Shown in pieces: positions 60,748 through 64,000 of a stretch of DNA of 64,000 nucleotides (its first letter is position 1; every line of letters begins with the position of its first letter). This stretch comes from a phage. The DNA is taken from sequence record PZ534534.1, one strand, 5' to 3'. A program made the position numbers and the translations under genes. Below the pieces are notes generated by a model. It did not search any database and was not told the DNA's origin. It saw only the letters and a list, made by a program, of their open reading frames with translations.

Positions 60748-61017
60748 ATGTTATACCAGCAATATGAACTTCGTGCAGAAAAAGAGTTAAATTTTGACAA
60801 AGATATTCACAGATATTATTATGGGAAAGTTAGAGGGCAAGCAAGAAAGTGTACTCCAACACTCTTTTATGCCAGCAGACGACTAGCGCCAGAAGAGGCA
60901 ACAGCAGAAAGGGTTGCGTACAACTGGAGAGTCACGTATGATATTGACAGATTCGATGTGATATCTGTTTTGGAAAACTTTGAAAACACTTACACACAAG
61001 TAGAGGACTTTTACTAA
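60748..61017 (+). CDS. hypothetical protein
   Basis: 89-aa ORF. Confidence 0.4.
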   Translation: MLYQQYELRAEKELNFDKDIHRYYYGKVRGQARKCTPTLFYASRRLAPEEATAERVAYNWRVTYDIDRFDVISVLENFENTYTQVEDFY

Positions 61018-62201
61018 TGTCAAGAAACGTATTCGAAAGTGGTCAAATCACTGTCCGTGAGTTGCCAGCTATTATTCAGTTTGCCCAACGTCATAGCCGA
61101 TCTGTCCTAATTTTGGGACCAATGGGTGTGGGTAAAAGCCAGGTGATGAAGCAGATCGCTGATAATATGTTCGGTGAGCGAGATGACAACCTTGTTGACG
61201 TGCGACTGTCAGATAAAGATCCTGCCGACTTATCTGGGCTACCTATCCCTGTAGAAGCGGATGGAACTACACGTACAGTGTTTGCAATTCCAGAATTTTG
61301 GCCTGCGGATCCTGACTGGAGCGGAATTATCTTTCTGGATGAGCTCACTCATGCAGATAACTACCTGCAAAAGGTTGCAATGCAAATTATGCTTGACCAC
61401 AAGTGCGGCACCTATGCATTCCCTAAAGGTTCTGTTTTTGTGGCTGCGGGTAACCGTTCTACAGATGGTGCGGTTCTTTCGGCGCTCGAAGCCCCTCTGG
61501 CTAACCGTTTTATCATTGTAGAGGTTACAAGCAATGCAGAGGTGTTTATTGAGGACTACGCATTCCTCAACGGGGTTCACTCCTCTGTAATTGGGTATCT
61601 GAAAAGAGTTCCATCAGCTATTGATAATTATGAGGCTATGGCTGAGATTAATTGTCCATCTTTTGCCACACCACGATCTTGGGTTGCTGCATCTGACATC
61701 TTGCACGATTTTGACAGCGGTATTATTTCTGACGCTATGGCCCGTGTTCTTCTACAAGGTGCTATTGGTCACACTGCAGCGGTAGAGATCTGGACTTACC
61801 ACACCAAGAAACGTAATTTACCGGAAATCGGTCGGATTATGGCAGGTGGCTGCAAAGAATACGTAGGTCCTAAGCAGCCAGACATTTTGTGGATTCTTGG
61901 ATCTGAAGGTTGTATCGCTATTCGCAATATGATGGAAAATGCAAGTATCTCAGACGAAGATCTTGTCAGCTGCGTGGCAAACTTCCTCGATTTCCTTTGG
62001 GAAAACTTCAAGGACGAGAACCGAGATTTTGTATTCTCAGTCTTTATGGCGATGATGAAACCTAATGCCTTAGGAAATGCCTTGCTTATCGGTAAAGGGC
62101 GTGACAAGATTGTTGCTCAGCTGATCAAAGCATACCCAAACCTGATGAAGATTGTAAAAGAGTTTGGTGAAGAGTTTAGCGCCATTTTGGCTAAAGCTTA
62201 A
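61017..62201 (+). CDS. AAA+ ATPase, MoxR-like
   Basis: Walker A GPMGVGKS and Walker B IIFLDEL with overall MoxR-type layout. Confidence 0.8.
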   Translation: MSRNVFESGQITVRELPAIIQFAQRHSRSVLILGPMGVGKSQVMKQIADNMFGERDDNLVDVRLSDKDPADLSGLPIPVEADGTTRTVFAIPEFWPADPDWSGIIFLDELTHADNYLQKVAMQIMLDHKCGTYAFPKGSVFVAAGNRSTDGAVLSALEAPLANRFIIVEVTSNAEVFIEDYAFLNGVHSSVIGYLKRVPSAIDNYEAMAEINCPSFATPRSWVAASDILHDFDSGIISDAMARVLLQGAIGHTAAVEIWTYHTKKRNLPEIGRIMAGGCKEYVGPKQPDILWILGSEGCIAIRNMMENASISDEDLVSCVANFLDFLWENFKDENRDFVFSVFMAMMKPNALGNALLIGKGRDKIVAQLIKAYPNLMKIVKEFGEEFSAILAKA

Positions 62202-62604: not shown

Positions 62605-62628
62605 CCCCCGCTTCGGCGGGGATTTTCT
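62605..62628 (+). terminator. rho-independent terminator (CGCTTCGGCG family)
   Basis: Hairpin CCCCCGCttcgGCGGGG followed by ATTTTCTATTT. Confidence 0.65.
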
Positions 62629-62641
62629 ATTTGGAGTCATT

Positions 62642-63142
62642 GTGAAAATTAAGATCTTTGCTATTATTTTGAGCGCACTTTTATCGCTGCCTGTTGTTGC
62701 AGCACCAAAACAAAAAGTATATCATACTTGCAAGCCATCAGATACTAAGGAAAACATTCTGGCATGCAATATCTACAGGGAAGCTAGAGGAGATGGCACG
62801 ATGGGTATGCTGGCATCTGGGTTTGCCACACTAAACAGGAAATCCCACCCTAAATACCCAGACACTATAAGAAAGATTGTCTACCAACCTAACCAGTTTT
62901 CGTGGACAAACCACGGCAAAACTTTTAAGGTGACAGAAAAAGATTCATGGGATCACGCTAAAAGTCTTGCAAAGATGCTTCTAAAGGTCTATAATAACAA
63001 CCATGTTGCATACATGGCTATGGACATAACAGGTGGAGCAACACACTACCATACAACCAAAGTACGACCGAAATGGGCAAAAAAGATGCAGAGGACAGCT
63101 CAATTCGGGAGCCATATCTACTACAAGGAGCGCAATAAATGA
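62642..63142 (+). CDS. secreted cell-wall hydrolase, SleB-like (putative endolysin)
   Basis: N-terminal signal peptide (MKIKIFAIILSALLSLPVVAAP); block CNIYREARGDG...ATLNRKSHPKYPDTIRKIVYQPNQFSW matches the SleB-type cell-wall hydrolase signature. Confidence 0.65.
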   Translation: MKIKIFAIILSALLSLPVVAAPKQKVYHTCKPSDTKENILACNIYREARGDGTMGMLASGFATLNRKSHPKYPDTIRKIVYQPNQFSWTNHGKTFKVTEKDSWDHAKSLAKMLLKVYNNNHVAYMAMDITGGATHYHTTKVRPKWAKKMQRTAQFGSHIYYKERNK

Positions 63143-64000
63143 TTGTAAACAGTAATGAAACTAAAGCGGTACTAACCGGGAATATGGAGGTCACCAGGGG
63201 CTCAATTTCTCTGAACAAAGAGACTTTTGGGCTAATCATTAAAGGGATTTACGAAGATAAGGTGCTGGCAAGCTGCCGTGAACCAATCTTCAATGCCGTG
63301 GACTCCCATGTTGAGTCTGGACGGGGTGATGTACCGATCATTATTCACTCTCCTACAGACCTTGAACCATACTTCTTTGTGCAGGACGTTGGATTGGGCA
63401 TGTCAGAAGAGATGGTCCGCAACACTTTCATGAATCTCGGGGAGTCAACCAAGCGCAACAGCAACGCTCTGGTAGGTAATAAAGGTGTTGGTTCAAAGGC
63501 TCCGTTCAGTATGGTGGACACTTTCGATGTTATCAGTGTGCACAATGGTGTTGAAAGCACATATCTATTGTTCTTGGATCAGGGTATCCCAAACGTTACC
63601 AAGATCCGTGAGCGGAAGACTGAAGAGCACAACGGGGTAAAAGTTCAGTTCCATGTTAAGAAAGAGCATGTCCTGAAATATCGCACTGCTATTGCGTCAT
63701 GCCTACGCTATGCAAAGTTTCCGTTTACCGTTACCGACCCTATGACCAGTAAGATGCTGGAAGGTGATAAGGTTGAGGCGCAGTATCACTACGAGAAGGA
63801 TGGTTGGAAAATGACCATCCTGAAAGGTTATACCAGCTCTGATGAGAGCCGTGTGGTGATGGGACACCAACCTTACCGCTCTAAGTTTCTGGAAACATTG
63901 ACAGACTACCCTGCAATCTGTGTAGAGATCCCTATCGGGGATTGCAATATTAACCCTGGGCGCGAATGGACCATAGAGGGGCACGACGATGGTGGATTCC
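63139..64000 (+). CDS. rIIA-like protein with GHKL-type ATPase motifs, 3'-partial (runs off window)
   Basis: Hand-translated ORF absent from ORF track (no stop in window); motifs EPIFNAVDS (N-box), DVGLGM (G1), GNKGVGSKAPF (G2). Confidence 0.5.
   Translation, partial: MIVNSNETKAVLTGNMEVTRGSISLNKETFGLIIKGIYEDKVLASCREPIFNAVDSHVESGRGDVPIIIHSPTDLEPYFFVQDVGLGMSEEMVRNTFMNLGESTKRNSNALVGNKGVGSKAPFSMVDTFDVISVHNGVESTYLLFLDQGIPNVTKIRERKTEEHNGVKVQFHVKKEHVLKYRTAIASCLRYAKFPFTVTDPMTSKMLEGDKVEAQYHYEKDGWKMTILKGYTSSDESRVVMGHQPYRSKFLETLTDYPAICVEIPIGDCNINPGREWTIEGHDDGGF

Follow-up and report, generated by a model that had tools for sequence, protein, structure and literature searches.

An open reading frame at the edge of a phage sequence window probably represents the 5' part of a Vequintavirus rIIA gene

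Gene order at the 3' end of the window

The window is the whole stretch of phage DNA that we analyzed, 64,000 nucleotides of sequence record PZ534534.1 read 5' to 3' on one strand. Megablast places it among the Vequintavirus phages, which are rV5-like E. coli myophages with genomes of about 136 kb. The region between positions 62000 and 64000 matches 121 phage records at 90-99% identity, and the last 25 kb match 139 records. With more than 100 Vequintavirus records, the DNA identity reaches 97-99%. All features described below lie on the + strand. A cell-wall hydrolase gene of the SleB/CwlJ type occupies positions 62642-63142 (Pfam Hydrolase_2, E 2.1e-19) and carries the same annotation in the relatives of this phage. 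A small conserved phage ORF (62164-62592) lies on its 5' side, and a MoxR-like AAA ATPase was recognized further 5' using Pfam and PHROGs. Between the small ORF and the hydrolase gene, a hairpin at 62606-62621 (CCCCGC-TTCG-GCGGGG) is followed by a T-rich tail, at the same site where a terminator is annotated in phage EdH4. This predicted terminator may mark the start of a co-oriented block composed of hydrolase, rIIA and rIIB.

In the ATPase region, we noted two ORFs at 60748-61017 (89 codons) and 61017-62201 (394 codons) that overlap by one base. In phage nomo, each bears the annotation 'ATPase / MoxR ATPase'. The gene may be split here, or one ORF may owe its annotation to its neighbour.

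The frame of interest begins at the end of the hydrolase gene. Its start codon (ATG, 63139-63141) shares two bases with the hydrolase stop codon (TGA, 63140-63142), and the resulting ATGA overlap suggests that the two genes are translationally coupled. Since an in-frame TAA (63136-63138) immediately precedes it, this ATG is the earliest possible start. A Shine-Dalgarno-like AGGAG can be read at 63126-63130, 8 nucleotides 5' of the ATG, and the whole junction from 63100 to 63145 has the sequence CAAGGAGCGCAATAAATGATTG. From the ATG, the frame runs through 287 sense codons plus one base without any stop as far as position 64000, which is the final base of the window. Each of the remaining five frames contains between 9 and 23 stops over these 862 bases, and none of 20,000 composition-preserving shuffles of this stretch stayed open. 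The first-pass annotation of the window had described an open frame that starts at 63139 in overlap with the hydrolase stop, reads to the window end and is missing from the ORF list. All of this was reproduced, and the frame is unlisted because the program omits ORFs that run off the source sequence. For the window, the result therefore amounts to an annotation fix, in which a real gene was missed at the edge of an ordinary rV5-like coliphage genome.

Assignment to rIIA and to the GHKL superfamily

We compared the 287-residue product with PHROGs and retrieved phrog_612 'RIIA lysis inhibitor' (E 3.5e-100), with residues 1-278 aligned to positions 1-279 of the 725 positions of the profile. The T4 rIIA protein, extracted from NC_000866, matches the same profile with E 9e-250, and BLASTP directly aligns it with the fragment from residue 1 over 198 amino acids at 27% identity (E 4e-22). 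By N-terminal profile match the fragment is thus a member of the rIIA family, and the likeness to the N-terminus of T4 rIIA-type proteins proposed in the first-pass annotation is well supported. In most of the matching phage records, the gene is indeed annotated as rIIA, 'RIIA protector from prophage-induced early lysis' or 'membrane integrity protector'. We estimate a probability of about 93% that the frame at 63139-64000 is the 5' 43% of a Vequintavirus rIIA gene cut by the window edge.

A second profile, phrog_609 'RIIB lysis inhibitor' (1,055 positions), is matched by T4 rIIA at positions 19-310 and by T4 rIIB at positions 751-1049. Fusions of rIIA with rIIB apparently form the basis of this profile or a part of it, and rIIA proteins therefore draw a misleading 'RIIB' match.

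Because the window ends at codon 287, only relatives can show how the gene probably continues and whether PZ534534.1 is likely to have rIIB. The fragment is identical to the rIIA proteins of nomo and EdH4 at 286 of 287 residues (99.7%). In the genome of nomo (MN850578), the start codon lies at the counterpart of position 63139, and the gene is 1,983 nucleotides long and encodes 660 amino acids. It is followed after 10 nucleotides by a gene for a 401-residue rIIB and then by a helicase gene, and the layout of EdH4 matches. More than 100 relatives in GenBank share a 660-residue product, for which rIIA is the usual annotation, with rIIB starting about 10 nucleotides further on. The first-pass annotation had proposed that the full-length product be searched against rIIA profiles and that an adjacent rIIB-like gene be sought. 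Carried out on relatives that differ from the fragment by no or one amino acid in 287, both checks came out in favour of rIIA. Residues 1-656 of the nomo protein cover positions 1-722 of the 725 in phrog_612 (E 1.7e-124), and a rIIB homologue lies about 10 nucleotides past the rIIA stop in nomo and EdH4. It lies there also in six contigs from IMG/VR (L006-L011). Two of these six contigs are close relatives and the other four carry proteins 66% identical to the fragment. The nomo rIIB protein is 36% identical to T4 rIIB over its C-terminal 204 residues (E 2e-38). T4 and Vequintavirus rIIB share only these C-terminal ~200 residues, and the N-terminus of T4 rIIB shows weak helix-turn-helix matches that are absent from the Vequintavirus protein.

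For the N-terminal domain, we built an alignment of residues 1-220 from nine rIIA proteins. These were the window protein, T4, a metagenomic protein 66% identical to the fragment, and the proteins of Moogle, KVP40, RpAliso, MaMV-DL02, Magneto and RHph_N38, which are phages of Citrobacter, Vibrio, Ruegeria, Microcystis, Caulobacter and Rhizobium, respectively. The set spans Straboviridae, Ounavirinae, Schitoviridae, a cyanophage and a Caulobacter phage, and its seven distant members share 23-34% pairwise identity with the window protein. Eighteen positions are invariant in all nine proteins: M1, Y38, R47, E48, N52, D55, D83, G85, S103, K105, G113, G116, G118, S119, K120, P122, P151 and G166.

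The first-pass annotation had also reported three GHKL ATPase motifs in the correct order, and we could place each of them. The N-box, E48-P-I-F-N52-A-V-D55 (63280-63303), contains the predicted catalytic Glu and the predicted Mg-binding Asn. The G1 box, D83-V-G85-L-G87 (63385-63399), contains the Asp predicted to contact adenine, and the G2 box, G113-N-K-G116-V-G118 (63475-63492), provides the predicted glycines of the ATP lid. The fragment therefore carries ExxxNxxD, DxGxG and GxxGxG in this order (residues 48-55, 83-87 and 113-118), and the residues that define the motifs are all among the invariant columns except G87. The invariant S119, K120 and P122 come right after the G2 box.

Profile searches lead to the same superfamily. 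The GHKL model HATPase_c_3 of Pfam (PF13589) recognizes the fragment with 36.9 bits, above the gathering cut-off of 25 bits. When the N-terminal profile of the nine rIIA proteins was compared with PDB, the best match was E. coli HtpG (2ior, E 1.3e-12), followed by GRP94, TRAP1 and Hsp90-alpha (E 1e-12 to 1e-9). The fragment is therefore placed among GHKL proteins both by a curated threshold and by solved GHKL domains. In the alignment with HtpG all three motifs are in register: RElitNavDa of the rIIA profile corresponds to RELISNASDA, DyGvG to DNGVG and GalGlG to GQFGVG. The nine-sequence profile was needed to reach the N-domains of the Hsp90 family, as phmmer with a full-length relative returned PDB matches at E about 0.1 only. 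Our sequence and profile searches of PDB found no solved structure of rIIA, and a single-sequence AlphaFold2 model of the 287 residues (mean pLDDT 33) was discarded as too poor. At the level of sequence, the fragment belongs to the rIIA family and to the GHKL superfamily by every test that 287 residues allow.

The gene itself is already known, as it has been annotated and tested in near-identical phages. Dozens of such genes are annotated, and the copy in the window shows no departure from those that are deposited or published. We ran megablast with the whole fragment and with each half against 50,697 phage records. It returned no identical record, and the top match to the whole fragment reaches 98.7%. 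The first half of the fragment is closest to APECc02, JeffSchatz and PMBT16 (top match 99.3%) and the second half to MaxTheCat, I29 and the SA_NWU phages (99.5%). Scans with exact 50-mers found nothing in the contigs of IMG/VR and of the JGI metagenomes. As each half has its nearest relatives in another sub-lineage, the fragment looks like a mosaic assembled from known sub-lineages, which would fit recombination within the gene.

Among the records matching this region, 16 GenBank entries named 'Campylobacter phage' (including MG065635, MG065655 and MG065658; host C. jejuni) share 98-99% identity with Vequintaviruses of E. coli, both at the rIIA locus and over 25 kb. They are apparently mislabelled or contaminated.

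Putative role of RIIA together with RIIB

Orthologues of rIIA have been described as an N-terminal GHKL ATPase joined to a variable C-terminus (Iyer et al. 2021, PMC7824862). The protein considered here, 660 residues long in relatives, would accordingly be made of an N-terminal Hsp90-like ATP-binding domain of ~190 residues with the GHKL Bergerat fold and of a more variable C-terminal region. It would be produced together with RIIB, which is encoded directly downstream. Hsp90, MutL and GyrB use an ATP-driven conformational or dimerisation cycle. Because the catalytic Glu, the Mg-binding Asn, the adenine-binding Asp and the glycine lid are all invariant, and given the general behaviour of GHKL proteins, we infer that RIIA may bind and hydrolyse ATP through E48, N52, D83 and the G113-G118 lid. 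A conformational or dimerisation cycle driven by ATP would then enable it to cooperate with RIIB at the membrane. How the rII genes work is described as poorly understood in the literature that we searched, and we found there no report that any RIIA binds or hydrolyses ATP, nor one on a biochemical mechanism for rIIA/rIIB. It is a tentative suggestion, with the odds against it, that RIIA works as an active ATP-driven clamp or chaperone-like machine which, in concert with RIIB, remodels abortive-infection effectors that depolarise the membrane, such as RexB, or blocks them. If this were true, the Vequintavirus orthologue could suit work on the rII mechanism better than that of T4.

Experimental evidence on the function of the pair comes from close relatives. 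As reported by Adler et al. (2025, PMC11879866), knock-down of RIIA or RIIB in T4, MM02, EdH4, SUSP1 and N4 had no effect on E. coli in the absence of Rex and lowered the plating efficiency on E. coli that expresses lambda RexAB. The RIIA protein of EdH4, one of the phages in this set, and the window fragment differ at a single residue. In the literature, RexAB is described as acting by abortive infection, through depolarisation of the membrane. RIIA and RIIB, which form a classic and widespread phage counter-defence module, would therefore be dispensable on defence-free hosts and would permit growth on lambda RexAB cells, where membrane depolarisation would abort the infection.

The breadth of this function can be read differently. 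Vequintavirus rIIA/rIIB could mainly counter defences besides lambda RexAB, such as further abortive-infection systems that depolarise the membrane, with the effect on Rex being incidental. In the BASEL study very few wild-type phages were affected by RexAB, and it was suggested there that immunity may not be the primary task of Rex. PhageMaP tied the rIIA/B genes of Bas63 to QatABCD, and RIIB from phage T6 activates a bacterial gasdermin system. By these findings, the module interacts with several systems. Against this stands the knock-down reported by Adler et al., which specifically sensitised a phage set including EdH4 to lambda RexAB. We regard a mainly broader target as possible, although the less probable of the two; in either case it concerns the breadth of function and leaves the identity of the gene undisputed.

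Integrity of the gene and comparison with known systems

If the frame is rIIA by descent, the gene could still be broken by a frameshift or stop just past the window, and its product would then be reduced to the GHKL domain or the gene would be a pseudogene. Such a case is found in the record of phage V18 (KY683736), which is identical to the fragment at 287 of 287 residues and carries a 1-nucleotide deletion at gene nucleotide 1014 (codon 339), so that the annotated CDS has 346 amino acids. In addition, a preprint (10.1101/2025.10.21.683753) describes a hypermutable A6 tract in T4 rIIA that acts as a reversible off-switch, and nomo rIIA has an A6 run at nucleotide 1372, which lies past the window end.

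Most of the evidence from relatives points the other way. A tblastn search with the 660-residue protein retrieved 184 records at E <1e-100, 181 of which cover at least 80% of it, and the best 60 of the 184 are all single unbroken matches. The six IMG/VR contigs all contain intact ORFs of 660-672 codons. The deletion of V18 does not occur in a homopolymer and may be a sequencing error. The first-pass annotation had considered that an early stop in the downstream sequence would speak against it. Judged on relatives, the frame is unbroken over 660 residues in nomo, EdH4 and the best 60 tblastn records, and it is frameshifted at codon 339 in V18. An early stop in rIIA is therefore possible but rare. 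We consider it very unlikely that the gene is broken in PZ534534.1, and its rIIA copy is in all probability intact beyond the window, as far as relatives allow to predict.

The deletion of V18, at about 7014 in the V18 locus, may be either a real inactivation or a sequencing error, and the RefSeq copy of this genome (NC_041937) still names the product RIIA lysis inhibitor. We also asked whether the window could be V18 itself, and rejected this candidate since 23 of 862 nucleotides differ (97.3% identity). Within the fragment (63139-64000), a check for contingency loci found no A/T run of 6 or more and no G/C run of 5 or more.

The pattern of substitutions can be compared across relatives at increasing distance. 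The fragment differs from V18 at 23 nucleotides and no amino acid, from EdH4 at 37 nucleotides and 1 amino acid, from contig L007 at 72 nucleotides and 1 amino acid, and from contig L006 at 100 nucleotides and 6 amino acids. By these counts, purifying selection on the rIIA fragment is strong.

Finally, the chance that the frame encodes a different GHKL protein, such as an Hsp90/HtpG-like chaperone, a MORC/paraMORC-like ATPase, a topoisomerase ATPase subunit or a GHKL component of a restriction or defence system, is negligible: there are weak generic matches to NCBIfam HSP90 (20.4 bits), to the sacsin ATP-binding domain, to the BbrUII restriction enzyme and to PADLOC TmtA and REase_II (E about 1e-3), and the top PDB-profile matches are Hsp90-family proteins, but none of these scores comes near its family threshold (for HSP90, 20 bits against 455) and the matches reflect the shared nucleotide-binding core only, while the rIIA match in PHROGs is ~90 orders of magnitude better and starts from residue 1, and in the relatives the full-length protein matches the rIIA profile along its whole length and rIIB is the next gene.

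The individual families were rejected on the same grounds. As a whole protein, HSP90 (NCBIfam NF010683) scored 20.4 bits against a cut-off of 455 bits, with PDB matches in the N-domain only, and for both reasons the Hsp90 likeness holds at the level of the superfamily only. The best PADLOC match to a defence GHKL protein was partial (E 1.5e-3, 14 bits), and sacsin, the BbrUII restriction enzymes and TmtA all remained far under their thresholds.

With rIIA as the preferred reading, the closest known systems are the rIIA genes of other Vequintaviruses (EdH4 QBO61345.1, nomo QHR66726.1, Murica and rV5). They have the same start and the same ATGA overlap with a SleB-type hydrolase, and their upstream order is that of the window, with MoxR-like ATPase, small ORF, terminator and hydrolase. 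Between the window fragment and these genes there are 11-37 nucleotide differences, which are mostly synonymous.

The type member of the family, T4 rIIA (NP_049616.1, 725 amino acids), resembles the window protein in its match to phrog_612, in the N-box, G1 and G2 motifs and in the invariant S-K-x-P that follows them. It also has rIIB as its next gene and counteracts RexAB. The two proteins differ in that their 27% identity extends, by pairwise BLAST, only over the first ~200 residues, in length (725 amino acids compared with 660 in the relatives of the window) and in a 6-residue insertion of T4 rIIA between G1 and G2. The genomic neighbours differ as well, being rIIA.1 and topoisomerase gene 60 in T4 and the cell-wall hydrolase in the window. 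T4 rIIA scores 22.1 bits with HATPase_c_3, under the cut-off of 25, whereas Vequintavirus proteins pass it with 34.9-39.8 bits. Judged from profile scores and alignment, the predicted nucleotide pocket of Vequintavirus RIIA is more canonical and Hsp90-like than that of T4 RIIA, with all catalytic residues invariant.

Among solved structures, the closest are the N-domains of the Hsp90 family (HtpG 2ior, GRP94 and TRAP1), whose core aligns with rIIA over about 180 residues with RExxxNaxDa, DxGxG and GxxGxG in register. Past the N-domain the likeness ends: rIIA has no Hsp90 middle or C-terminal domain, and its biological role is different.
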